Positions 8,491 to 19,912 of a stretch of 64,000 nucleotides of DNA are shown piece after piece. The notes under the pieces were generated by a model that saw only the letters and a list, made by a program, of their open reading frames with translations, did not search any database and had not been told where the DNA came from. The stretch covers positions 8,472 to 72,471 of the forward strand of contig VXYT01000112.1 of the NCBI GenBank assembly GCA_009845855.1, read 5' to 3'. The position numbers and the translations under genes are program-made. The DNA is from Candidatus Palauibacter ramosifaciens (lineage in GTDB: Bacteria; Gemmatimonadota; Gemmatimonadetes; Palauibacterales; Palauibacteraceae). How positions within the stretch are numbered: position 1 is the stretch's first letter; every line of letters starts with the position of its first letter.

Positions 8491-8955
8491 GTGCGTATGG
8501 ACACTTCGAGATTCCGGGCGATCCTTCTCCTGACGCTCGTGTTCGCGGCGGGCGCCGCGATCGGCGTAGCAGTGGACCGCCTCGATCTTCTTGCGGACGC
8601 GACCGCGGCCGACCCGCCTGTGGAGACCGTGTCGCCCGAAACGCCGGATCGCGATGGCGGGTCGCGGGGGGGACAGACCACGATCGAGCAGTTCGCCGAT
8701 GAACTGGGTCTGACGGCCGACCAGCGGTCGCAGATCGAGGGTTTCCTCGATCACTACCGCGACGGGATGCGGACGTTGCGCGGGGGCTACCGGACGTTGA
8801 TGGATTCGGTCCGGACCCGGATCGAGTCGGTGCTGACGGAGGAGCAGGGTGAGGATTATCGGGAGTTGCTGCGACAGCGCTACGGGGGCGGGCGGGAGCG
8901 CGGCGGCGAACGGGGATCATCCCAGGGGCGTGACGACGCGCAGCGAAACAACTGA
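8491..8955 (+). CDS. periplasmic LTXXQ-motif protein (CpxP/Spy/ZraP family, stress chaperone/sensor-like)
   Basis: Has a signal peptide/TM (ILLLTLVFAAGAAIGVAV). The LTXXQ motif occurs twice: LGLTADQRSQIEGFLDHYRD and VLTEEQGEDYRELL. Confidence 0.6.
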   Translation: MRMDTSRFRAILLLTLVFAAGAAIGVAVDRLDLLADATAADPPVETVSPETPDRDGGSRGGQTTIEQFADELGLTADQRSQIEGFLDHYRDGMRTLRGGYRTLMDSVRTRIESVLTEEQGEDYRELLRQRYGGGRERGGERGSSQGRDDAQRNN

Positions 8956-8999
8956 CAACCCAGAGACGTCAATCCGCCCCTCGGGGAGCAAGGAAAACG

Positions 9000-10358
9000 A
9001 TGACCATTCGACATAGATGTGGGTACGGAGACCGGCCGAGCGCCGGTCTTCGTCGATGGGGGTTCGTCCTGCTGCCGGCGCTTCTGCTCGCGGGAGCGTC
9101 GCCCCGGATGGCCGAGGCGCAGGTGCAGGCGAGCGGCAACGTCCGCCAAATCACGGTCGACGAAGCCGTCGAGATCGCGCTCCGCCGCAACCCCGGGTTG
9201 CTCCAGGCCTACTCCGCGATCGAGATGGCCGAGCACAACCGGCTGAGCGCGTACGGGACGCTCCTCCCGGGGGTGAACGCCTTCTTCAGCTACTCGAACT
9301 CGTCTACCGGTCGCCTCGACGCGCTCAGCCAGGGGATCGTCGCGACGAGTTACTCCACGCGGCTCCAGGCCAACTACACGCTGTTCGACGGATGGGGGCG
9401 TTTCACGAACCTGAAGAGCGCCCGGCTCGGGGTCGTCGAGCAGAACGCCCGCTATCGCGAGGCCGAGTTCCAGGTCATTCAGCAGGTGAAACAGGCCTAC
9501 GCGGAGAACGTCGCGGCGCTCGAACTCGTGGCGGTGGAGGAACGCCGCGTCCAGCGGCAGGCGGACCAGCTCGAGTTCGTCCGGCAGCAGTTGGAACTGG
9601 GACGGGCCACGCGCTCGGACTCGCTCCGCTCGCAGGTCGATCTCAACAATGCGCAACTCGCACTTCTGAACGCGCAGAACAACGCGCGTACGCGGACCTT
9701 CGAACTCACCGAGGTCATCGGCTCCGAGACCCTCGTGGGGCCGACCGCGGAGGCGGAACTCGCGATGGCCGCGATCCCCTTCTCCCGCGACGAGCTGTTC
9801 GCGATGGCCGATGTGACGGCTCCCGCCCTGGAGGCGGCCTCCCTGGCCGTCGAAGCCGCCGAGGCAGCGGTGTCCGGCGCACGCTCCAGTTACCTGCCCA
9901 CGATCTCGATCGGCGCCGGCTACGGGTGGGCGAATCAGGAGTTCCCGCCCTCCAACCGCTCCTGGTCGGTCGGGGTCTCCGGCAGCTATCCCCTCTTCAA
10001 CGGCTTCCAGCGCGAGACGCAGGTGTTCCGCGCCCGGGCCGCCGCCGATCAGGCCCGGCAAAACGAACGGGCGGCGCGACTCAACCTCAGTTCGCTGCTC
10101 GACGCACGATACGCGACAGCGCAGTCGGCGCTCGCGAGCGTCGACCTCGCGGAGAGGAACGTCGAACTCAGCGAGGAGAGCCTCCGGGTCGTACAGGAGC
10201 GCTACCAGCTCGGCCTCGCCACGATTCTTGAGCTCCAGGACGCGCAGATCACGCTCACGCAGGCGGAGGTCGATCTGGTCCGCAATCGGTTCCTGTACGA
10301 GGCATCGGTCGCGGGGATCGAGGCCCTCCTTGGCCGGAGGCTCGACCAGCAACCCTAG
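9000..10358 (+). CDS. TolC-family outer membrane efflux protein
   Basis: Has a signal peptide and two repeated alpha-helical/beta halves typical of the outer membrane factor family, e.g. QAYSAIEMAEHNRLSAYGTLLPGVNAFFSYSNSSTGRLD and FNGFQRETQVFRARAAADQARQ. Confidence 0.85.
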   Translation: MTIRHRCGYGDRPSAGLRRWGFVLLPALLLAGASPRMAEAQVQASGNVRQITVDEAVEIALRRNPGLLQAYSAIEMAEHNRLSAYGTLLPGVNAFFSYSNSSTGRLDALSQGIVATSYSTRLQANYTLFDGWGRFTNLKSARLGVVEQNARYREAEFQVIQQVKQAYAENVAALELVAVEERRVQRQADQLEFVRQQLELGRATRSDSLRSQVDLNNAQLALLNAQNNARTRTFELTEVIGSETLVGPTAEAELAMAAIPFSRDELFAMADVTAPALEAASLAVEAAEAAVSGARSSYLPTISIGAGYGWANQEFPPSNRSWSVGVSGSYPLFNGFQRETQVFRARAAADQARQNERAARLNLSSLLDARYATAQSALASVDLAERNVELSEESLRVVQERYQLGLATILELQDAQITLTQAEVDLVRNRFLYEASVAGIEALLGRRLDQQP

Positions 10359-10412
10359 CACCCGCATGTAGTATCTCTTCAACGTCGGCCCCGCGCGGAG
10401 TGTCCTCTGAGC

Positions 10413-11954
10413 GTGCCATGGTGGGCGCTGTTTCGGCGCCCCGATCGTCCGTTCAAGGACCCGACACGAGACGAGATGCCGATGTCCATATTCGAACGCT
10501 GCAGGCGTCGCTTCCCCCGGCGAGGCGGGGCCTTGGGCCCTGCCGCGATCTTCACGACGCTTGGACTCGCGGCCGCGGGCTGTGCGACCGGCGAGGCCAA
10601 CGAGCCCGAGCAGACCCTCCAGACGCTGACCGCGGGGCACCAGACCATCGTCTCCAGCGTGGAGGCGACCGGCACGGTCGAACCGATCCGCGTGATCGAG
10701 GTCAAGTCGCAGGCGGGCGGCGAGGTCCTCGAACTGCCCGTCGAACTCGGCGACAACGTCGAACAGGGGACGCTCCTCGTGCGGATCGACCCGCGCGATG
10801 TGAACAACGCTCACGCCCAGGCCCAGGCCGATCTCGACGTCGCGGAGGCGCAGAACGACGTTGCCGAACGCCAGCTCGAACGGGTCGAGGCGCTTCACGA
10901 GTCCGACATCGTGACCTCCGAGGAACTGGAGAGCGCGATCCTCTCCGCGGCGAACGCGAGGGCTTCCCTCGTCCGCGCCACGACCAACCTCGAACTTGCC
11001 GAGGACAAGCTGGACGACGTGACGCTCCGGGCCCCCATCACCGGAACCGTCGTGGAACGGACGGTGGAGCAGGGGCAGGTCGTCACGGGGACGCGCGACC
11101 TCACCGGCGGCACGGTGCTGATGCGAATGGCCGACCTCACCGAGGTCCAGGTGCGCATGCTCGTCGACGAGACGGACATCGGCCGGCTCCAGCCCGGACT
11201 CCCGGCGGATATCACCGTCGAAGCGTACCCCAACCGGACCTTCCGGGGGGCCGTTCTCAAGATCGAACCGCAGGCGGTCGTCGAGCAGAACGTGACCATG
11301 TTCGCCGTGCTCACGCGCATCTCCAACGAAGAGGATCTGCTGCGGCCGGGGATGAACGCGGACGTCGAGGTCGTGATCGGGCGCCAGGAGGATGTGCTGG
11401 CGGTGGCGAACAGCGGGATCAAGACGCAGCAGGAGGCCCTGCAGATCGTCCGGGCGCTCGAAATCGACGCCGATGTCAACGCGCTGCTGCGCGACTTCCA
11501 GAGCCAGGATCGGCCGGACGGTGCGGCGCAGGGGGATGGAGCGGCGGAGGGCGAGGAGGAGGCGATGATCGGCGGGGTTCCGATGTCGGAGTTCCAGTCG
11601 ATGTCGCAGGCGGAGCGGATGCGGGTCATCCAGAACCTGTCGGACGACGAGCGGCGGCAGATGATGCAGCAGTTCCGGAACCGCGGAGGAGGCGGACCCG
11701 GAGGCGGCCGAGACGCCGCCGCGCGGCGGCCCGACGAGCCCCGCCCGGCCTTCGTGTTCAGGTACGATGCGAGCGGCCTCCTCGACCTGAAGCCGGTCAT
11801 GATCGGCCTCAGCGACTTCGATCACACGCAGATCATCCGGGGGCTCGAGGAAGGCGAGGAGATCGTCGCCGTTCCCACCTCGCTCATCGCGCAGCAGGAG
11901 TTCCTGGACCGGATCCGCAGCCGCACGGCGCTGCCGGGCATCGGCGGAAGGTGA
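10413..11954 (+). CDS. efflux periplasmic adaptor (membrane fusion protein, HlyD/MacA-like lipoprotein) with a ~120 aa acidic/Gly-rich insertion
   Basis: Lipobox LGLAAAGCA. It contains the coiled-coil hairpin, lipoyl and beta-barrel segments, and the C-terminal MP domain (PAFVFRYDASGLLDLKPVMIGLSDFDHTQIIRGLEEGEEIVAV). The likely true start is an internal ATG near 10479-10485. Confidence 0.85.
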   Translation: MPWWALFRRPDRPFKDPTRDEMPMSIFERCRRRFPRRGGALGPAAIFTTLGLAAAGCATGEANEPEQTLQTLTAGHQTIVSSVEATGTVEPIRVIEVKSQAGGEVLELPVELGDNVEQGTLLVRIDPRDVNNAHAQAQADLDVAEAQNDVAERQLERVEALHESDIVTSEELESAILSAANARASLVRATTNLELAEDKLDDVTLRAPITGTVVERTVEQGQVVTGTRDLTGGTVLMRMADLTEVQVRMLVDETDIGRLQPGLPADITVEAYPNRTFRGAVLKIEPQAVVEQNVTMFAVLTRISNEEDLLRPGMNADVEVVIGRQEDVLAVANSGIKTQQEALQIVRALEIDADVNALLRDFQSQDRPDGAAQGDGAAEGEEEAMIGGVPMSEFQSMSQAERMRVIQNLSDDERRQMMQQFRNRGGGGPGGGRDAAARRPDEPRPAFVFRYDASGLLDLKPVMIGLSDFDHTQIIRGLEEGEEIVAVPTSLIAQQEFLDRIRSRTALPGIGGR

Positions 11955-11964
11955 TGATGGTTCG

Positions 11965-13176
11965 ATGATCTTCTTCGAGATTCTCCGGGTCGCCATGGAC
12001 GCGATCCGCGCCAACAAGCTGCGCTCGTTCCTGACCATGCTCGGGATCGTGATCGGGGTCGGGGCCGTGATCACGATGGTCGCGCTCGGGGAGGGGGCCC
12101 AGCAGCAGGTCGAGAACCAGATCGAGTCGCTCGGCACCAACGTGCTCACGGTTCGCGCCGGGCAGGGCATGTTCCGCGGCGTGCGCGGAGGGTCGAACGC
12201 CCGGTTGACGACGGAGGACGTCGAGGCGGTGCGGCGCGGGGCCCCGGCGCTGGTGGAGGTCGCGCCGGAGATGCAGGGGCAGTTGCAGGTCCAGTTCGGG
12301 CGCAACAACGCCAACGTTCGAATTCTCGGGACGACGCCGAACTACCTGGCGGTCGAGAACCACACCCTCGAGCTCGGCCGCTTCTTCGACGAGTCGGAGA
12401 ACCGCGGCCGGAGGCGGGTCGCCGTGCTCGGGGGCGCGGTCCCGGCCGTCCTGAACGCCGAAACCGCCGAACTCGTCGGCCGGACGATCTCGATCCGGAA
12501 CATCTCCTTCGAGGTCGTCGGAGTGCTGGAGGAAAAGGGCGGATCGGGCTGGTTCAACCAGGACGAGCAGATCTTCGTCCCCCTGGAGACGGCGCAGTTC
12601 CGGTTGCTCGGGACCGACCGCGTGAGCCAGTTCAAGGTCGTCGTCGAGAGCGAGGCGGCGATCCCGGTCGCGATGGTGCAGATCGAGGAAGTGCTCCGGC
12701 GCGAGCACCGCATTCCCCTGGGGCGGGAGAACGACTTCTGGATCTCGGACAGCGTGCAGTTCCTCGAAATGGCGCAGGAGACGACGCAGACGTTCACGAT
12801 GCTGCTCGCCGGCATCGCCGCGGTCAGCCTCCTCGTCGGCGGCATCGGGATCATGAACATCATGCTGGTGTCGGTCACGGAGCGAACGAAGGAGATCGGC
12901 GTGCGCAAGGCGCTCGGCGCCACGAGGAGCGCGATCCTGCTCCAGTTTCTGCTCGAAGCCACGACGCTCTGCATGACGGGCGGCATCCTCGGAGTCGCTT
13001 TCGCGTACGGCGCGGCCGAGATGCTCTCGCGGTCGGCGGGCTGGACGATGGCCATCGCGCCGCAGGCCATCGGCCTCGCGGTGGTCTTCGCTGCCGCGGT
13101 GGGCATGTTCTTCGGCCTCTGGCCCGCCCGGCGGGCGGCCCGGCTCGATCCGATCGTGGCGCTCCGGTACGAATAG
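11965..13176 (+). CDS. MacB/FtsX-type ABC transporter permease (stand-alone, no fused ATPase)
   Basis: Begins MIFFEILRVAMDAIRANKLRSFLTMLGIVIGVGAVITMVALGEG, as MacB-type permeases do. It has four TM helices and a large periplasmic domain. No Walker motifs are present. Confidence 0.85.
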   Translation: MIFFEILRVAMDAIRANKLRSFLTMLGIVIGVGAVITMVALGEGAQQQVENQIESLGTNVLTVRAGQGMFRGVRGGSNARLTTEDVEAVRRGAPALVEVAPEMQGQLQVQFGRNNANVRILGTTPNYLAVENHTLELGRFFDESENRGRRRVAVLGGAVPAVLNAETAELVGRTISIRNISFEVVGVLEEKGGSGWFNQDEQIFVPLETAQFRLLGTDRVSQFKVVVESEAAIPVAMVQIEEVLRREHRIPLGRENDFWISDSVQFLEMAQETTQTFTMLLAGIAAVSLLVGGIGIMNIMLVSVTERTKEIGVRKALGATRSAILLQFLLEATTLCMTGGILGVAFAYGAAEMLSRSAGWTMAIAPQAIGLAVVFAAAVGMFFGLWPARRAARLDPIVALRYE

Positions 13177-13183
13177 GCTGCGA

Positions 13184-13729
13184 ATGGCGGGACGTCGCGG
13201 GCCGATGTATGGTCCCGGCATGAGTGTTCCGCTGACATCCCTTCCGGATTCCGCCCGCGTCTGGATCTACGGGACGGATCGTCCGCTGACTCCCGAGGAG
13301 CGCGACGCGCTGATGGTCGACCTGCGCGCCTTCGTCGACATCTGGACCGCGCACGGGGCCGCGCTCCGGGCGGGCGTGGACTGGGTCGAAGACCGGTTCG
13401 CGGTCGTCGCCGTCGACGAAGCCTCGGCTCCTGCGTCCGGGTGCTCGATCGACGCGATGGCCCGGCGGCTGGGCGCGCTCGAGGAACGACTGGGTTGCTC
13501 GCTTCTCGACAGCACGCGCGTGTTCTACCGGGACGAGTCCGGCGCGATCGAGAGTTGCGCGCGGGCGGAGTTCCGGGCGCGGGCGACGACAGGAGCGATC
13601 AGCGACGCGACCCCCGTCTTCGATCCCACCATCGACACGCTGGCGGCACTGCGCGCGGGCGAACTCGAGCGGCCCGTCGCCCGTTCGTGGCACCGGCAAC
13701 TCCTGAGCCGCCCCGGCGGACGGTCCTGA
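13184..13729 (+). CDS. hypothetical protein (family not recognised), co-transcribed between the permease and patatin genes
   Basis: 181 aa ORF, 8 bp after the permease stop and 14 bp before the patatin start. The likely start is an internal ATG at 13220. Confidence 0.45.
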   Translation: MAGRRGPMYGPGMSVPLTSLPDSARVWIYGTDRPLTPEERDALMVDLRAFVDIWTAHGAALRAGVDWVEDRFAVVAVDEASAPASGCSIDAMARRLGALEERLGCSLLDSTRVFYRDESGAIESCARAEFRARATTGAISDATPVFDPTIDTLAALRAGELERPVARSWHRQLLSRPGGRS

Positions 13730-13742
13730 CGCGGGGACCGGC

Positions 13743-14903
13743 GTGACGGGGGGGCCGGGGAGCGGCGCTTCCGGCGCCGCGCGGGGGAAGCTGGCCTTCG
13801 CCCTCTCAGGCGGCGGCGCGCGGGCCGCCTACCAGACGGGCGTGCTGAGCCATATCGGCAAGCGGCTGCCCGGGCTTCGGGTCCCTCTCCTCACAGGCGT
13901 CTCGGCAGGCGCGATCAACGTGGGTTTTCTCGCCGCCTATGACGGAAATCTACGCGGCGCGACGCAGGCGCTGAAGCGCCGCTGGCTCTCGCTCACGACG
14001 GAGGAGGTGCTGCGCACCAACCCCGCTTCCCTGCTGAAGGTCGGCGTGCGACTCGGGGGATCCCTTCTAGGCGGCGGCACCGGGCTGAGCCCCCGTTTCC
14101 GAAGCCTCGTCGACACGTCACCGCTACGGGAGTTCATCGAACGCGACGTCGACCGCGGAGAGATCGGGAGCCGGATCGAGGCAGGGGACCTCGAGGCGGT
14201 CGGGCTCACCGCGATGTCCTACCAGACGGGGCGCACGGTCCTCTTCGTACAGGGAGACCCACAATCGGCGCCGAGGCCCGCGAGCTCGCACTACCGACTC
14301 GTGCGGACGGACATTTCGGTGGACCACATCCTGGCCTCCGCGTCGATTCCGCTCGTGTTCCCGGCCGTCAAGCTCGGGCAGCAGTATTACGGAGACGGGA
14401 GCTTCCGCACCGCCGCCCCGCTGGCGCCCGCGATTCACATGGGGGCGGACCGCATCTTCACGATCTCGGCCCGCTATCGGCGGTCCGAGCTGGAGGCGCG
14501 CGCGCCGGACACGACCGGATATCCGCCGCCGGCGAGAGTCCTGGGCCTGCTGCTAAATTCGGTGTTCCTCGACACGCTGGACTGGGATGCGGCCGCGCTG
14601 CGCAGGATCAACCTCCTCGTCGGCCGACTCCCCCCCGAAGTTTCCGAGCGCCAGGGGCTGCGTCACGTCGACCTGCTCATCCTGAGACCCTCCCGGGATA
14701 TCGGGAAGCTGGCGCGCGACTTCGAGATCGAACTTCCTCCGGCGCTGAGGTTCCTCGTGCGCGGCCTGGGCACGCCGGACATCAAGACGGCCGACTTCGT
14801 GAGTTATCTCCTGTTCGAGAGCGAGTACATCCGGACGCTCGTGGAACTGGGAGTCTCGGATGCCGAGGTGAACTGGGACCGCATCGAGGCGTTCCTCACC
14901 TGA
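13743..14903 (+). CDS. patatin-like phospholipase
   Basis: Carries the oxyanion motif ALSGGGARAAYQTGVL and the serine hydrolase motif GVSAGAIN (GxSxG). A catalytic Asp lies in the DGS/DGG region. Confidence 0.85.
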   Translation: MTGGPGSGASGAARGKLAFALSGGGARAAYQTGVLSHIGKRLPGLRVPLLTGVSAGAINVGFLAAYDGNLRGATQALKRRWLSLTTEEVLRTNPASLLKVGVRLGGSLLGGGTGLSPRFRSLVDTSPLREFIERDVDRGEIGSRIEAGDLEAVGLTAMSYQTGRTVLFVQGDPQSAPRPASSHYRLVRTDISVDHILASASIPLVFPAVKLGQQYYGDGSFRTAAPLAPAIHMGADRIFTISARYRRSELEARAPDTTGYPPPARVLGLLLNSVFLDTLDWDAAALRRINLLVGRLPPEVSERQGLRHVDLLILRPSRDIGKLARDFEIELPPALRFLVRGLGTPDIKTADFVSYLLFESEYIRTLVELGVSDAEVNWDRIEAFLT

Positions 14904-16021
14904 CTGAGCAACGGACGATCGTCCACTTCGCCGACCTCCACCTCGACTCCCCGTTCGCGTGGTGCGAGGCGACGGGCGACGTAGCGCGGAGGCGTCGCGA
15001 AGCGCTTCGCGACACCCTGCTCGCGATCGTGGACCTCGTGCGTTCGTCCGGCGCGGACGCGCTCTTCTGCGGAGGCGATCTGTACGAGCACGACCGCGTC
15101 ACGCTGGACACGGCGGACTTCCTGCGGCAGACCTTCGCCTCCCTCGACCCGGTGCCGGTCTACATCGCGCCCGGCAATCACGACTGGTACGGGCCGACGA
15201 GCGTCTACGCGACGGGGGGCTGGAGCGGGAACGTCCACATTTTTCGGGATGCGGCGCTGCGGGCGGTCTCCCTCGCGCCGGGCATCACGCTGTGGGGCGC
15301 CGCGCACTGCGCTCCCGCCAACACGGACAATTTCCTCGGCGACGGCTTCCGGATCTCCGGCGAGGGGGCGCACGTGGCGCTCTTTCACGGAGCGGAACGG
15401 TCGTGGCTCGCGGCACAGGGCGAAGGCAAGGCGCCGCACGCTCGCTTCGAGACCGCGGAAATCCCGGACAGCGGGCTGGATCACGCCTTTCTAGGCCACT
15501 ATCACCGGCCGGCGGACGGCGCGCATCACACGTATCCGGGCAATCCCGACCCGCTGCAGTTCGGAGAGGAAGGGGAGCGCGGGCCCGTCGTGGCGACGAT
15601 CGACGCGACGGGCGAGGTCACGCGGGAGCGCCACGTCGTCGCGGTCACGCCAGTGTACGACCTGCGGCTCGATGTCACGGGCCTCACGAGTCGCCAGCAG
15701 ATTCGGGACGCCCTGCGCGCGATGACGGAGAGCCTCGCGGGACTCGCGCGTCTCACGGTGTCCGGCGACCTGGAGCCGTCGCTCGACCTCCAGGAGAACG
15801 CGATCCGCGAGCAGTTGCTCGACACGTTCGACGCCGTGCAGATCCGGAAAACCGATTTGCACCTTGCCTACGACCTCGACGAGATCCGCGGCGAGCCCAC
15901 GGTGCGGGGGCGGTTCGTCGACGATGTGCTGGGAGCGGGGTTGCCGGACGATGAGGAGCGCCGTGTCCTGCGGATGGGACTCCGGGCTCTCGACGGACGC
16001 GACGATCTCGAGGTGCTGTAA
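14900..16021 (+). CDS. sbcD: SbcD/Mre11-like metallophosphoesterase nuclease (start non-canonical: CTG at 14900 overlapping the patatin TGA as CTGA; first in-frame GTG only at 15029)
   Basis: The in-frame translation upstream of 15029 reads LTEQRTIVHFADLHLDSPFAW...GGDLYEH.... This holds the conserved motif I (DxH) and motif II (GDL) of calcineurin-like phosphoesterases. GNHDW and GHYH come later. No ATG, GTG or TTG lies between the in-frame stop at 14870-14872 and motif I. Confidence 0.8.
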   Translation: MTEQRTIVHFADLHLDSPFAWCEATGDVARRRREALRDTLLAIVDLVRSSGADALFCGGDLYEHDRVTLDTADFLRQTFASLDPVPVYIAPGNHDWYGPTSVYATGGWSGNVHIFRDAALRAVSLAPGITLWGAAHCAPANTDNFLGDGFRISGEGAHVALFHGAERSWLAAQGEGKAPHARFETAEIPDSGLDHAFLGHYHRPADGAHHTYPGNPDPLQFGEEGERGPVVATIDATGEVTRERHVVAVTPVYDLRLDVTGLTSRQQIRDALRAMTESLAGLARLTVSGDLEPSLDLQENAIREQLLDTFDAVQIRKTDLHLAYDLDEIRGEPTVRGRFVDDVLGAGLPDDEERRVLRMGLRALDGRDDLEVL

Positions 16022-18912
16022 TGCGTTTCGAGTCGGTGACGGCCCACCGCTTCGGCCCCTTCCGCGACGAGACGCTGGAACTGGCGCCGGGCATGAACGT
16101 CGTCTTCGGCCGCAACGAGGCGGGCAAGTCGTCCTGGCACGCCGCGCTCTATGCCGGGCTCTGCGGCATTCGGCGCGGCAAGGGGGCGATCCGGAAGGAG
16201 GAAAGGCGGTTCGCGGAGCGCCACAGGCCGTGGGACGGCGACGAGTGGGAGATCGGGGCCATCGTCGCCCTCGAGGACGGACGGCGCGTGGAGTTGCGGC
16301 ACGACCTGGCGGGAAGGGTCGAGAGTTCGGCGGAGGACACGAGCGTCGCCAGACGGGACTATTCGGGCGAGATCCTGTTCGACGGGGCGCCGGACGGCTC
16401 GCGGTGGCTGGGTCTGAATCGCCGCTCGTTCCTCGCCACCGCCTGTGTGCGCCAGGCGGACATTCTCAAGGTCCGGGACGATCCCGAATCGCTGCAGGAA
16501 GACATGCAGCGCGCCGCGGCGACGGCCGGTGTGGACCAGACGGCGGCTGCCGCGCTGCAGCGGCTCGAGGAGGTGCTCCGGGAACGCGTTGGGTCGACCC
16601 GGGCTCCGACGAAGCCTCTCATGACGACCGCGCGGCGGGTAGCGGAGTCGCGAGAGGCGCTGGAGGCGGCCCGCGAGGCGCAGCGGGACTTCCAGGAGCG
16701 TCGCGCCGAGGTGGAAACTCTGGAACAGGCGGCGAGGGACGCCCGGCGGCGCGTGGAGGCAGCGGCGGCCGCGCTCGCGAGCGCGGAGGCGGAGGCGCTC
16801 GCGGAGCGGCTGCGGGAGGCGCGGGCCCTGCACGAGGAGTTCCCCGAGGGGGCGCCGCACCCGGTCCCCGAGGGCGGTGGGCTGACGAGAGCGGTCACCG
16901 AAGCGCTCACCACGTGGCGCAACCTCCCGGCTCCGGTGGAGCTGACCGGGCCCTCGGCGCGCGAGATCGGGGCGAGGATCGAGGGGGTCGATACGGAGCT
17001 GGCGGCCGCGCGGGCGGTCATCGCGGAGGCCGCCGCGGCGGACGCCGAGGCTCGCCTCGCCAGCGTGCATGAGCTGCATGCGCTCTTCCCGGACGGCGGC
17101 CCCCGGGTCTCCCCGGAGGAGGACGCACGCATGGGGGAGATCCGCGATGCACTGCGCGCCTGGGAGTCGCTTCCCGCAGTTGAAGCGCCGATCGGCCGGA
17201 GCGTGGAGGAGCTCGAGGAAGAGCTGGCCAACCTCGAAGAGAGACGGCGGGCGCCCCTCACGGAAGGTCCGGCCGCGCGACCCGCAATGTGGCTGGCTCT
17301 TTCGGCGGTCGTGGCGGCAGGGGGCCTCGTCCTCGCCCTGCTGGCGCCCGATTCGGGTTCCGCGGGGCTCATCCTGTTCGCCGTCGGGGCGGCGGGTGTC
17401 CTGTCCCACAGGTTCGCGAGGACACGCTCCGACCGCTCGGAGATCGCGCTCGCCCTGGACGTGCGCCACGACAGTCTCCGGCGCGAACTCGCGTCGGCGC
17501 GCGCGGAGCATGAGCGCTACGAGGACGGGCGCCGGCATCGGCGCGAGGCGATCGGCCGCATGCGCGAGCTTGCCGATCCGGAGACCGCGGCGACCGCCGA
17601 CCCGGAAACGCTCGCGGACGCCCTGCGCCGCGAGGTGGCGTCCCTGCAGGCCGGACGAGAAAAGGCCGGGCAGCTGGGCTCGCAGTGGGACGAGCTCAAG
17701 GGGTTGCTGGCCGGCTCGTCCTTCGACGCGCTTGTCGCCGAGACGGATCGGCGGCGCGAGGCGGCTGACGTCCTTGTCGCGGATGTGGCCGAGGCCGCGC
17801 TCGCGGACGCGAGGGCGCGGGGCATTACGCGGGGAGAGTTGGACGAACTCGAACGGCGGGCCGCGGAGCGACGTCGAACGTGGAGCGACGAGCGGGCCCG
17901 GCGCCTGGCGGCGGAGACGCGCGACGCACAGCGGTCGGAACGTGCCGCCGATGCCGCGAACAAGCTGCGCGAAGCCGGCGCGCAGGTCGGCGTGACCGCC
18001 GAAGATCCCGAGGATCTGGCTGCCGCACTGGAGCAATGGCGCGCCGGCCGGGAGCGGGTGCTCGACGAAGCCGGCGAGCGCAACGAGTCATGGGATCGCC
18101 TGCAACAGTTGCTTGGCGAGCGGACGCTGGAGGCGTTCGCGGACGATGTGGAGCGACTCCGCCTCCGGGCCGCCCGGCTCCTCGCCCGCAGCGGAGCGGA
18201 CGTTGACGAGGCTCGGGCGAGACGGGTCACCGAGGCGACGCTGGAGGATCTGAAGGGAGAAGCGGAGGCGGCCCGCGAGGAGGTGCTGCGCGCGGGCGGC
18301 CAGCTCACCGAGCGCGAACATCACCTCCCCAGCGTCGCGGACGCGGAGGACGCGCTGGCAGCGGCCGAACGTGAACAGGCGAGGATCGCACGTCTCAAGG
18401 ACACGCTGGACTGCACGATCGGGTTCCTCGAAGAGGCGCAGGAGCGCGTGCTGCGCGACATCGCGCCCATCCTCAGGCGGACCGTGCTCGAATGGCTGCC
18501 CGGGGTGACGGACGGCCGCTACACGGGATGCCGCATCGACCCGGAGAATCTGCTCGTGGAGGTCCGGGCGCCGGGCGGGCGCTGGCGGCCCGCCGAACTG
18601 CTCTCCCATGGCACGGCGGAGCAGATCTACCTGCTGCTCAGGTTCGCACTCTCACGGCACCTCACGCGCGAAGGCGAATCCTGTCCGCTCATCCTGGATG
18701 ATGTCGTCGCCGCTTCCGACGCGGCACGGAAACGGGCAGTACTGCAGACGCTGTACGCACTCTCGCGCTCGACGCAGATCATCCTCTTCACGCACGAGGA
18801 TGATGTGCGGGACTGGGCAACGGACCACCTCGCGGAACCCGACGGCCGCCTCATCGAACTCGGCGGACGGCGCGTCGAGAGTGAAGGAAACGGGCTGGCC
18901 GCCGCTACTTGA
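16021..18912 (+). CDS. sbcC: SbcC/Rad50-like SMC-type ATPase (YhaN-like: Walker A, long coiled coils, internal TM hairpin, no CxxC zinc hook)
   Basis: TAATG overlap with sbcD. Walker A is GRNEAGKSS. The ABC signature LSHGTAEQ, Walker B/D-loop LILDDVVAASD and H-loop FTHED sit at the C-terminus. The central ~800 aa are Ala/Glu/Arg-rich coiled coil. Two hydrophobic helices (PAMWLALSAVVAAGGLVLALLAP...LILFAVGAAGVLS) interrupt it. Confidence 0.8.
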   Translation: MRFESVTAHRFGPFRDETLELAPGMNVVFGRNEAGKSSWHAALYAGLCGIRRGKGAIRKEERRFAERHRPWDGDEWEIGAIVALEDGRRVELRHDLAGRVESSAEDTSVARRDYSGEILFDGAPDGSRWLGLNRRSFLATACVRQADILKVRDDPESLQEDMQRAAATAGVDQTAAAALQRLEEVLRERVGSTRAPTKPLMTTARRVAESREALEAAREAQRDFQERRAEVETLEQAARDARRRVEAAAAALASAEAEALAERLREARALHEEFPEGAPHPVPEGGGLTRAVTEALTTWRNLPAPVELTGPSAREIGARIEGVDTELAAARAVIAEAAAADAEARLASVHELHALFPDGGPRVSPEEDARMGEIRDALRAWESLPAVEAPIGRSVEELEEELANLEERRRAPLTEGPAARPAMWLALSAVVAAGGLVLALLAPDSGSAGLILFAVGAAGVLSHRFARTRSDRSEIALALDVRHDSLRRELASARAEHERYEDGRRHRREAIGRMRELADPETAATADPETLADALRREVASLQAGREKAGQLGSQWDELKGLLAGSSFDALVAETDRRREAADVLVADVAEAALADARARGITRGELDELERRAAERRRTWSDERARRLAAETRDAQRSERAADAANKLREAGAQVGVTAEDPEDLAAALEQWRAGRERVLDEAGERNESWDRLQQLLGERTLEAFADDVERLRLRAARLLARSGADVDEARARRVTEATLEDLKGEAEAAREEVLRAGGQLTEREHHLPSVADAEDALAAAEREQARIARLKDTLDCTIGFLEEAQERVLRDIAPILRRTVLEWLPGVTDGRYTGCRIDPENLLVEVRAPGGRWRPAELLSHGTAEQIYLLLRFALSRHLTREGESCPLILDDVVAASDAARKRAVLQTLYALSRSTQIILFTHEDDVRDWATDHLAEPDGRLIELGGRRVESEGNGLAAAT

Positions 18913-19912
18913 AGACCTTGTAGTCGGTCGAGTGGCCCGGGTTCACCTTCGCGGTCGGGTCGATGTGGTGGACCGCGTTGTTCACGGCGATCGCGGCCTC
19001 TCCGAAACCGGTCGAGATCAGTTCCAGCTTCCCGTCGTAGGTGGCGATGTCCCCTGCCGCATAGACGCCGGGGATGTTCGTGCGCATGCGCGAGTCCACC
19101 TCGATGCACCTCTTCCGCAGCTCGAGCCCCCATTCGGCGATCGGCCCGATGTTCGGAACGAAACCTATCAGAGCGATGATGCCGTCCACCTCGATTCGCT
19201 CCGTTTCCTTCGTCTTCGTGTGCCGGATCGTCGCGGCCTCCACCCGCTCGCCGCCGTGAATCTCCGTTACGGTGTGGAACGTTCGGAGCCGCAGTTCTCC
19301 GCGTTCATGCGCTCCCTCCACCTGGGCGACCGTGCTCTCGTGGGCCCGATAGCGGTCGGTCCGGTGAATATGTGTGAGCTCTCCGGCGATGTTCCGCAGC
19401 GCCCAACTCCAGTCGAAGGCGGAGTCGCCCCCGCCGACAAGAAGGACGCGTTTCCCGCGGAACACTTCCGGGTCCTTCACGTTCGTCGCGAGGCCCCGGT
19501 TCAGGAACTCATCCCAGCCCGGCACGCGCAGAGTGCGGCTCTTGAAGGCGCCCTTACCCCCCGCAATGACGACGGTGCGCGTGGGCCGCGGACCCTTGTC
19601 CGTGCGAAGATCGAAGCAGCCGTTTCCCGGATTGAGTTCGAGGACGCGCTCCTCTAGACAGACCTGCGCGTCGAACTGCAGACCCTGCGTGACGAGTTCC
19701 CGCGCCAGATCCTTGGCCAGCACCCGGGGGAAACCGGCGACGTCGAACACGTCCTTCTCCGGGTACAGCGCCGTAAGCTGACCCCCTAGTTCGGGAAGGA
19801 CATCGATGATGCGGGCCGACGCACCGCGCATACCGGCGTAGAAGGACCCGTAGAGGCCGGTCGGACCGCCTCCGATGATGGTAATGTCGACTGTTTCTTC
19901 TTTCACGCCCAA
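18905..19912 (-). CDS. ferredoxin--NADP+ reductase (thioredoxin-reductase-like, YumC type)
   Basis: N-terminus EETVDITIIGGGPTGLYGSFYAGMRGASARIIDVLPELGGQLTALYPEKDVFDVAGFP has the FAD-binding GGGPTG motif. A second NAD(P)-binding motif is VLLVGGGDSAFDW. It ends convergently, overlapping sbcC by 8 nt. Confidence 0.9.
   Translation of the reverse strand: MGVKEETVDITIIGGGPTGLYGSFYAGMRGASARIIDVLPELGGQLTALYPEKDVFDVAGFPRVLAKDLARELVTQGLQFDAQVCLEERVLELNPGNGCFDLRTDKGPRPTRTVVIAGGKGAFKSRTLRVPGWDEFLNRGLATNVKDPEVFRGKRVLLVGGGDSAFDWSWALRNIAGELTHIHRTDRYRAHESTVAQVEGAHERGELRLRTFHTVTEIHGGERVEAATIRHTKTKETERIEVDGIIALIGFVPNIGPIAEWGLELRKRCIEVDSRMRTNIPGVYAAGDIATYDGKLELISTGFGEAAIAVNNAVHHIDPTAKVNPGHSTDYKVFK

Follow-up and report, generated by a model that had tools for sequence, protein, structure and literature searches.

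A hydrophobic hairpin at the arm apex of a YhaN/SbcE-type ATPase from a sponge-associated Gemmatimonadota bacterium

How does an SMC/Rad50-like ATPase without a zinc hook hold the tips of its long arms, and where in the cell would it do so? This question is raised by a gene pair of Candidatus Palauibacter ramosifaciens, a sponge-associated Gemmatimonadota bacterium. The pair lies in a stretch of 64,000 nucleotides (contig VXYT01000112.1, positions 8,472 to 72,471, forward strand), hereafter called the window, and encodes an ABC ATPase of 963 amino acids (aa) together with a metallophosphoesterase. It is very likely a YhaN/SbcE-type complex. Taking the hydrophobic apex of the ATPase into account, we further infer a two-subunit, Mre11/Rad50-like machine of the YhaO/YhaN (SbcF/SbcE) type that would be truly inserted into the membrane by a hairpin, and we put the probability of this reading at roughly 70%. 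The two genes and the head motifs of the ATPase are the following (positions are those of the window; conservation refers to 52 homologues):

16021-18912, plus strand: SMC/Rad50-like ABC ATPase of the YhaN/SbcE type, 963 aa, ATG start (open reading frame, ORF, and its translation)
16108-16131, plus strand: Walker A (P-loop) GRNEAGKS, aa 30-37 (motif search); G30, N32, E33, G35, K36 and S37 invariant
aa 145: Q-loop glutamine Q145, kept in at least 90%
18601-18624, plus strand: ABC signature-like motif LSHGTAEQ, aa 861-868; S862, G864, E867 and Q868 invariant
18685-18720, plus strand: Walker B PLILDD, aa 889-894 (18685-18702), and D-loop D900; D893, D894 and D900 invariant
18793-18795, plus strand: H-loop histidine H925 (in FTHED), invariant
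14900-16021, plus strand: YhaO/SbcF-type metallophosphoesterase of ~372-373 aa, SbcD/Mre11-like; stop codon overlapping the start of the ATPase gene (TAATG)

The ABC head is complete, with Walker A, Q-loop, an SxGTxxQ signature, a DD Walker B, D-loop and H-loop. Since these motifs are invariant among the homologues (Q145 nearly so), the head looks catalytically competent. The Walker B of the family reads hhhhDD and not hhhhDE, so that an aspartate takes the place of the usual catalytic glutamate, which may make ATP hydrolysis slow or regulated. A preliminary description of this sequence had proposed an SbcC/Rad50-like ABC ATPase without zinc hook, and this is borne out by the head motifs as well as by the cysteines: a motif search of the whole 963 aa found no CxxC, the only cysteines are at aa 48, 142, 798, 837 and 888, and none of them lies within the apex region (aa 411-475).

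The head motifs and the Mre11-type phosphoesterase partner agree with canonical SbcC/Rad50, but both are superfamily-wide and do not discriminate. The zinc hook of the canonical proteins is lacking, and their curated thresholds are not reached: the NCBIfam Rad50 models score 20-34 bits on the ATPase against cut-offs of 700-1087 (best 33.8 against 700), and the SbcD model (TIGR00619) scores 19.1 bits on the nuclease against 77.65. In contrast, AAA_27 passes the Pfam gathering score with 39.4 bits (cut-off 22), next to matches to AAA_23 and SMC_N, and PF13514 is carried by all listed homologues. With AAA_27 above its Pfam threshold and the NCBIfam models for Rad50, SbcC and SbcD far under theirs, the earlier proposal of a YhaN-type protein rather than a true SbcC holds. 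The nuclease matches Metallophos (52.9 bits, profile positions 2-191, translation from 14903), its motifs DLHLD, GGDLYE, GNHD and GHYH are readable, and a relative of 369 aa shares 81% identity with it over 367 aligned residues. By sequence, the best match of the ATPase among solved structures is Pyrococcus furiosus Rad50 (E 9e-11, C lobe only). An AlphaFold2 model, built with a 52-sequence alignment (mean predicted local distance difference test, pLDDT, 76.8; predicted TM-score, pTM, 0.39), retrieved SMC5/6, MukB, Rad50, LmuB and JetC from the PDB with Foldseek, at TM-scores of 0.41-0.43 (normalised to target length) to Chaetomium thermophilum Rad50. Because the arms are flexible, these matches are generic SMC/Rad50 ones with a very large root-mean-square deviation.

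How does the pair compare with the YhaN/SbcE system of Bacillus subtilis? SbcE has no CxxC and possesses a unique central domain with a hydrophobic first half and a highly conserved proline; expressed in isolation, this domain was completely insoluble (Krishnamurthy et al., 2009; PMC2811018). SbcE interacts with SbcF (YhaO), contributes to double-strand break (DSB) repair and transformation, and shows polar accumulation in competent cells, while its gene stands in the order yhaO-yhaN-yhaM, i.e., nuclease, ATPase and exoribonuclease (PMC2811018). The same paper described the SbcE family as Gram-positive (PMC2811018). The window pair resembles this system as a two-gene unit with a metallophosphoesterase nuclease directly upstream of an SMC-like ATPase of ~900-960 aa, which has an AAA_27 N lobe, no CxxC and a proline-bearing hydrophobic centre between long helical arms.

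For B. subtilis SbcE itself we relied on the published description and used an exonuclease-ATPase-HD/OB locus of Enterococcus faecalis as sequence proxy. This record, like that of a Monoglobus (Clostridia) homologue, comes from a plasmid collection and looks chromosomal by gene content. The E. faecalis gene order is exonuclease, AAA ATPase (903 aa), HD plus OB-fold protein, peptidyl-prolyl isomerase (PPIase), YtxH and HIT. Its ATPase scores 78.5 bits with AAA_27, has the signature LSTGTKDQ, the Walker B IIIDD and no CxxC, and has at its midpoint a hairpin, PLWLLLGSILVLLGFFLPSPLKWGLVLVGVSFIA, whose turn contains prolines ('FLPSPLK'). In hhalign it is matched at 95.2% (E 2.6e-8), and the exonuclease of the locus is 22% identical to the window nuclease (E 4e-15). 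We take HD plus OB-fold to be the YhaM architecture, and prsA and hit to be neighbours of the B. subtilis yha genes; since the gene order also fits yhaO-yhaN-yhaM, the ATPase is taken to be the YhaN orthologue and the locus to be yhaO-yhaN-yhaM.

Two further comparators point in the same direction. The Monoglobus homologue (701 aa) has a metallophosphoesterase gene upstream, aligns with the window ATPase in both head lobes (31% identity, E 6e-15; E 3e-8), and has its most hydrophobic 19-residue windows from aa 341 and 371 (Kyte-Doolittle, KD, values 2.55 and 2.77). In overall architecture, both Firmicute comparators (Monoglobus and E. faecalis) agree with the window ATPase. A tblastn search of plasmid records returned alphaproteobacterial genes named 'YhaN family protein' by the Prokaryotic Genome Annotation Pipeline (PGAP), among them a Sphingomonas protein of 1154 aa with 232 bits for AAA_27 and a 'DNA repair exonuclease' gene upstream; hhalign places the family profile on its C lobe (97.6%, E 3.6e-12). 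The SxGTxxQ signature and the DD Walker B are common to the window ATPase and the Sphingomonas, Monoglobus and E. faecalis proteins, and in all three comparators a nuclease gene lies immediately 5' of the ATPase gene. The likeness to YhaN thus extends to the proline-turn apex hairpin, the DD Walker B and the signature of the E. faecalis ATPase, and it agrees with the hydrophobic and insoluble central domain, the proline and the missing CxxC reported for B. subtilis (PMC2811018).

At the sequence level, the window ATPase has every YhaN/SbcE character that was testable, and it is a diverged branch of this known, little-studied family. The divergence is visible in AAA_27 scores of 39 bits for the window against 78 (E. 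faecalis) and 232 (Sphingomonas), with the head lobes alone aligning. Furthermore, in contrast to SbcE/SbcF, the window locus has no yhaM-like HD/OB exoribonuclease gene downstream, the arms are made of recognisable tandem units, and the host is a Gram-negative-type Gemmatimonadota bacterium. With SbcCD/Mre11-Rad50 the pair shares an ABC head split by long antiparallel helical arms and a calcineurin-like phosphoesterase nuclease, but the window ATPase differs in its hydrophobic-hairpin apex, the lack of a CxxC hook and the Walker B DD instead of DE.

What, then, is the apex? The arms and the segment between them are arranged as follows:

16615-17250, plus strand: N-terminal helical arm, aa ~199-410 (AlphaFold2 helices 199-273, 287-300, 313-354, 365-382 and 395-410)
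17284-17346, plus strand: apex helix 1, aa 422-442, AMWLALSAVVAAGGLVLALLA, with conserved R420 before it; KD maximum 2.31; AlphaFold2 helix 422-441
17347-17358, plus strand: tight turn P443-D444-S-G, 4 residues (family consensus P-D-[LF]-R)
17359-17418, plus strand: apex helix 2, aa 447-466, SAGLILFAVGAAGVLSHRFA, with conserved R467 and R469 after it; AlphaFold2 helix 443-466
17437-18507, plus strand: C-terminal helical arm, aa ~473-829 (AlphaFold2 helices)

Two consecutive hydrophobic helices of 21 and 20 residues, connected by a turn of 4, occupy aa 422-442 and 447-466 (nt 17284-17418). The preliminary description had such a pair at aa ~455-500; the helices exist, but this position was ~35 residues too C-terminal. 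The strongest hydrophobic stretch covers aa 421-463, with a KD 19-residue maximum of 2.31 at aa 423, and the 43-residue block PAMWLALSAVVAAGGLVLALLAPDSGSAGLILFAVGAAGVLSH contains no K/R at all and one acidic residue (Asp). While 33-36% of the arm residues are charged, this applies to only 0-2% in the two apex helices, and the resulting uncharged helix-turn-helix of 45 residues with Arg-rich flanks sits exactly between both arms. In the AlphaFold2 model, helices 422-441 and 443-466 are set off from the arms by low-confidence linkers (412-420 and 467-471). By our rough estimate, chance alone would give a protein of this size about 1e-5 to 1e-4 near-uncharged runs of ~43 residues (0.67 per residue). 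However, conservation is a stronger argument than this chance estimate that the hydrophobic block is real.

The family in which conservation can be judged is large. Among 1.84 billion cluster representatives, a profile search retrieved 1418 proteins (50%-identity cluster representatives) at E <= 1e-30, and 488 genomes contained relatives when one genome was scanned for each species. The listed loci belong to Gemmatimonadota, Dehalococcoidia and other Chloroflexota, Vicinamibacterales and other Acidobacteriota, Actinomycetes and a few Gammaproteobacteria; the closest relatives come from metagenome-assembled genomes of Ca. Palauibacter, several of them named for sponge hosts. Gene neighbourhoods were compared by tblastn and all-against-all clustering of flanking ORFs in 86 loci, i.e., 19 of the Palauibacter clade and 67 others. 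A homologous nuclease gene abuts the ATPase start in all 86.

Hairpin statistics were taken from 39 hairpin-type sequences. Helix 1 has a mean KD of 2.06 with 2% charged residues, helix 2 a mean KD of 1.81 with 0%. Single positions are well conserved: G435 in 38 of the 39, G449 and G456 in 33 each, P443 in 30 and D444 in 27 (plus 5 with Glu), and in the flanks R420 in 28, R467 in 26 and R469 in 31; W462 occurs in 22 and is Ser in the window protein. Despite these positions, overall sequence identity of the hairpin stays below that of heads and arms. K/R-free blocks of 38-59 aa bounded by K/R are found in 36 sequences (35 related loci and the window protein), and where a hydrophobic apex is present it lies at relative position 0.44-0.51 in homologues of ~600, ~740, ~960 and 1175 aa from several phyla. 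The same picture emerged when the best 150 representatives of 50%-identity clusters were surveyed: two strong hydrophobic segments lie close to the midpoint in 112, and most of 32 more keep a ~40-aa block free of K/R/E, so that ~90% possess a hydrophobic apex. Thus the hydrophobic apex hairpin is a trait of the YhaN/SbcE family and not a peculiarity of the window gene.

The same sequences rule out a zinc hook. No CxxC is present in the central third of any of the 150 representatives, and none at the apex among the 86 fetched loci. Of the 120 closest homologues, 119 are free of the motif throughout; the remaining one, a truncated protein of 736 aa (P0043), has two CxxC outside the hairpin. A buried coiled coil with a hook motif in homologues, which would have spoken against the hydrophobic segment as a membrane hairpin, was thus not found: the segment is not amphipathic and the homologues carry no hook at that position.

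In sequence terms, the family hairpin consists of a basic flank, a first apolar stretch of ~21 residues, a turn of 4, a second apolar stretch of ~20, an interfacial Trp and another basic flank. Such an order is classical for a membrane hairpin whose two ends are cytoplasmic, as the segments have bilayer length, the turn is short and the flanks are positive. The hairpin of the window protein would accordingly be inserted in the membrane. We envision that it enters the cytoplasmic membrane in-in, with both ends in the cytoplasm and the Pro-Asp turn alone at the outer face. The arm tips would be tethered to the membrane, and the ATPase-nuclease heads would hang in the cytoplasm. G435, G449 and G456 would let both helices pack tightly, and hairpins might possibly pair with each other in the bilayer instead of using a zinc hook. 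By analogy with SbcE/SbcF of B. subtilis, such a complex could process DNA ends near the membrane, both in DSB repair and on incoming DNA.

Several observations weigh against this reading. AlphaFold2 confidence at the hairpin is low (pLDDT 64-71, with a pTM of 0.39), and helix 2 of the window protein is Gly/Ala-rich and only moderately hydrophobic (KD ~1.5-1.8). The AAA_27 alignment of the window ATPase is limited to profile positions 1-55 of 206. A fusion of SbcE with yellow fluorescent protein (YFP) formed mobile foci on nucleoids and at the poles, and so did not obviously behave as an integral membrane protein (PMC2811018). The Sphingomonas 'YhaN family protein' has no hydrophobic apex, and because such a protein exists, a membrane anchor is not obligatory in the wider family. 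Finally, the arms are unequal in length (N ~212 aa, C ~357 aa) and consequently do not form a simple coiled coil of two strands.

Alternatively, the hairpin might be a soluble module for dimerisation at the apex, where two hairpins would form a buried four-helix bundle in place of a zinc hook or SMC hinge. Every SMC/Rad50-type protein needs some such device and the window ATPase has no CxxC. In addition, small residues such as G435, G449 and G456 are typical for tight helix-helix packing, the mobile foci of B. subtilis SbcE are nucleoid-associated (PMC2811018), and some relatives possess just one short amphipathic helix at this place or lack a hydrophobic apex altogether. However, the surface of a buried coiled coil or soluble bundle would be amphipathic, whereas these helices are hydrophobic on every face (0-2% charged, mean KD ~2). 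That hydrophobicity and Arg flanks are kept while the sequence is poorly kept fits a lipid-facing anchor better than a protein interface, and the central domain of SbcE was insoluble on its own (PMC2811018). We consider a soluble apex unlikely. Dimerisation as such is compatible with membrane insertion, as it could happen inside the membrane.

Those relatives in which the hairpin is replaced deserve a closer look. In ~8-10 of the 150 representatives a single helix such as GLFATLFRAIRAVFAALFRLFG takes its place, and among the related loci such proteins form an amphipathic sub-clade (loci L003, L029-L035, L047, L050, L052, L053, L055 and L056, and a subset of proteins P0082-P0120), mostly from Dehalococcoidia, Tepidiformaceae and Caldilineaceae. 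They carry one Arg-faced helix with a hydrophobic moment of 0.62-0.78 and a mean hydrophobicity of 0.0-0.3, which, judged from its residues, would look like an in-plane membrane anchor. With such a helix in place of the hairpin, the comparison suggests that what is conserved at the apex is membrane affinity rather than any one sequence. As a separate observation, one Tepidiformaceae contig (OZ253575.1, with loci L032 and L052) contains two paralogous nuclease-ATPase pairs, and both ATPases are of the amphipathic-helix type.

Besides the apex, the arms themselves carry duplications. In the N-arm, two tandem units (aa 253-328 and 338-403, 16777-17229), each with an 'FPxGxP' break, are 44% identical (score 100 against 36 +/- 6.5 for shuffles). 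The C-arm contains another one (aa 518-618 and 652-752, 17572-18276) built of 'WDxLxxLLG' units with 34% identity (score 114 against 55 +/- 8.6). The hairpins of a Dehalococcoidia protein of 744 aa and a relative of 960 aa differ at three positions only, and the shorter protein is precisely one unit short in each arm (82 aa in the N arm, ~141 aa in the C arm). The family falls into length classes of ~600, ~740, ~900-990 and ~1175 aa. Arm length thus seems to change by quantal, paired units of ~82 aa in the N arm and ~135-141 aa in the C arm.

One might combine these features into a further proposal: the apex hairpin would be both membrane tether and in-membrane dimerisation device, the quantal arms a spacer that sets the depth of the nuclease head, the complex a gatekeeper at the membrane for DNA ends, and the amphipathic sub-clade a version that binds reversibly. 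This extension is conceivable, yet doubtful. If true, the DNA ends concerned would be those which arise at or enter through the envelope, as in transformation, conjugation, phage injection or membrane-attached chromosome regions.

The nuclease-ATPase pair might also primarily be an anti-phage or anti-plasmid module, similar to Lamassu, Wadjet or MADS, that surveys DNA entering at the membrane. LmuB, JetC and mad3 share with the window ATPase an SMC/Rad50-type head and helical arms, and PADLOC gave partial matches to mad3 (73.6 bits, E 5e-21, aa 637-930, 17929-18810; profile positions 59-327) and LmuB (49.1 bits, 1e-13; positions 194-590), which together with JetC is also in the Foldseek list. 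Some relatives adjoin integrases, toxin-antitoxin genes, DruA/transposase or a large DEAD/MZB helicase, others are located on alphaproteobacterial plasmids, and one Tepidiformaceae genome has two paralogous copies. However, the PADLOC matches concern generic ABC-head and arm regions; with the Sphingomonas and Monoglobus homologues only weak ones were obtained, and with that of E. faecalis none. The partner genes of these systems (LmuA/LmuC, JetABD, other mad genes) are missing, and nothing except the nuclease is conserved nearby; membership in a known defence system was hence rejected. We know of no apex membrane hairpin described for the LmuB, JetC or mad3 families, and our literature search found no account of a membrane-anchored SMC-like apex. 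Moreover, the surroundings of the Palauibacter pair are of housekeeping type (rho, SSB, MlaD) and stay stably syntenic between species that are 61-87% identical, and the characterised member of the family, SbcE, works in DSB repair and transformation (PMC2811018). A primary role in defence is thus quite unlikely.

With regard to individual neighbourhoods, a Chloroflexota contig (L003 1-4353) encodes a DEAD/Helicase_C/MZB helicase of ~1700 aa directly 5' of the pair, presumably MrfA/Lhr-like, and an integrase and an AlpA-type regulator 3' of it. In the window, the following genes precede the nuclease:

9000-10358, co-directional with the patatin gene: OEP outer-membrane factor
10400-11968, co-directional: probable periplasmic adaptor; no Pfam match here, orthologue in locus L006 BSH_RND/HlyD-like
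11965-13176, co-directional: MacB_PCD/FtsX permease without fused ABC domain
13184-13729, co-directional: unannotated ORF of 181 aa, 5' of the patatin gene
13743-14903, plus strand, co-directional: patatin-like phospholipase (Pfam Patatin 8.9e-25); its stop overlaps the probable nuclease start (CTGA)

The GC content is 68-74% across 8800-19400. An efflux and patatin context had earlier been taken to fit a membrane-proximal role, an argument that is not supported: these genes adjoin the pair only in the 19 loci of the Palauibacter clade, where the entire +/-5 kb are syntenic, and they are absent from all 67 others, including a Longimicrobiales locus that also belongs to Gemmatimonadota. Flanking-ORF clustering of the 86 loci found no neighbour besides the nuclease that is conserved across lineages, and a partnership of patatin or efflux genes with the pair was rejected on this ground; they are neighbours through lineage synteny. 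That the pair, the patatin and the MacB/OEP efflux genes form one membrane-centred system is highly improbable, although seven co-directional genes follow each other from 9000 to 18912 with gaps of -4 to +42 nt and the CTGA overlap is nearly conserved in the Palauibacter clade (GTGA in L019), since the synteny leaves this adjacency without independent information, the genes are missing outside the clade, and the patatin has no CBASS-type (cyclic-oligonucleotide-based anti-phage signalling) or other defence signature above threshold.

The overlap between patatin and nuclease genes also bears on the start of the latter. In the window, no canonical start codon lies 5' of DLHLD, and the first ATG/GTG/TTG is a GTG at 15029, which would remove this motif. 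Most relatives of the Palauibacter clade have a GTG six nt past the patatin stop. Because the window has GAG at this site, and L007, L015 and L020 have GCG, the nuclease probably starts with the CTG at 14900, inside the CTGA overlap.

Downstream, a thioredoxin-reductase-like Pyr_redox_2 gene (18905-19912, minus strand) converges on the ATPase gene, with an overlap of 8 nt at the 3' end of the latter. A homologue lies directly downstream, on the same strand, of the ATPase homologue in Chloroflexi (L001 8956-9879, L002 6847-7770). The two genes are neighbours in 22 loci, of which 3 do not belong to the Palauibacter clade, and this may be a coincidence.

Taken together, for the window the analysis mainly provides a correct annotation and removes an unsupported link to patatin and efflux genes; the locus supplies an added example and comparative handles rather than a new kind of system. 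YhaN/SbcE-type complexes are widespread, yet we found essentially one experimental paper on them (2009). The midpoint hairpin, the conserved Gly, Pro and Arg residues, the amphipathic replacement and the quantal arm units are handles that can be applied to tractable homologues. If true, a hold on the membrane by the arm tips would represent a distinct spatial organisation of DNA-end processing and an alternative way of dimerisation at the apex.

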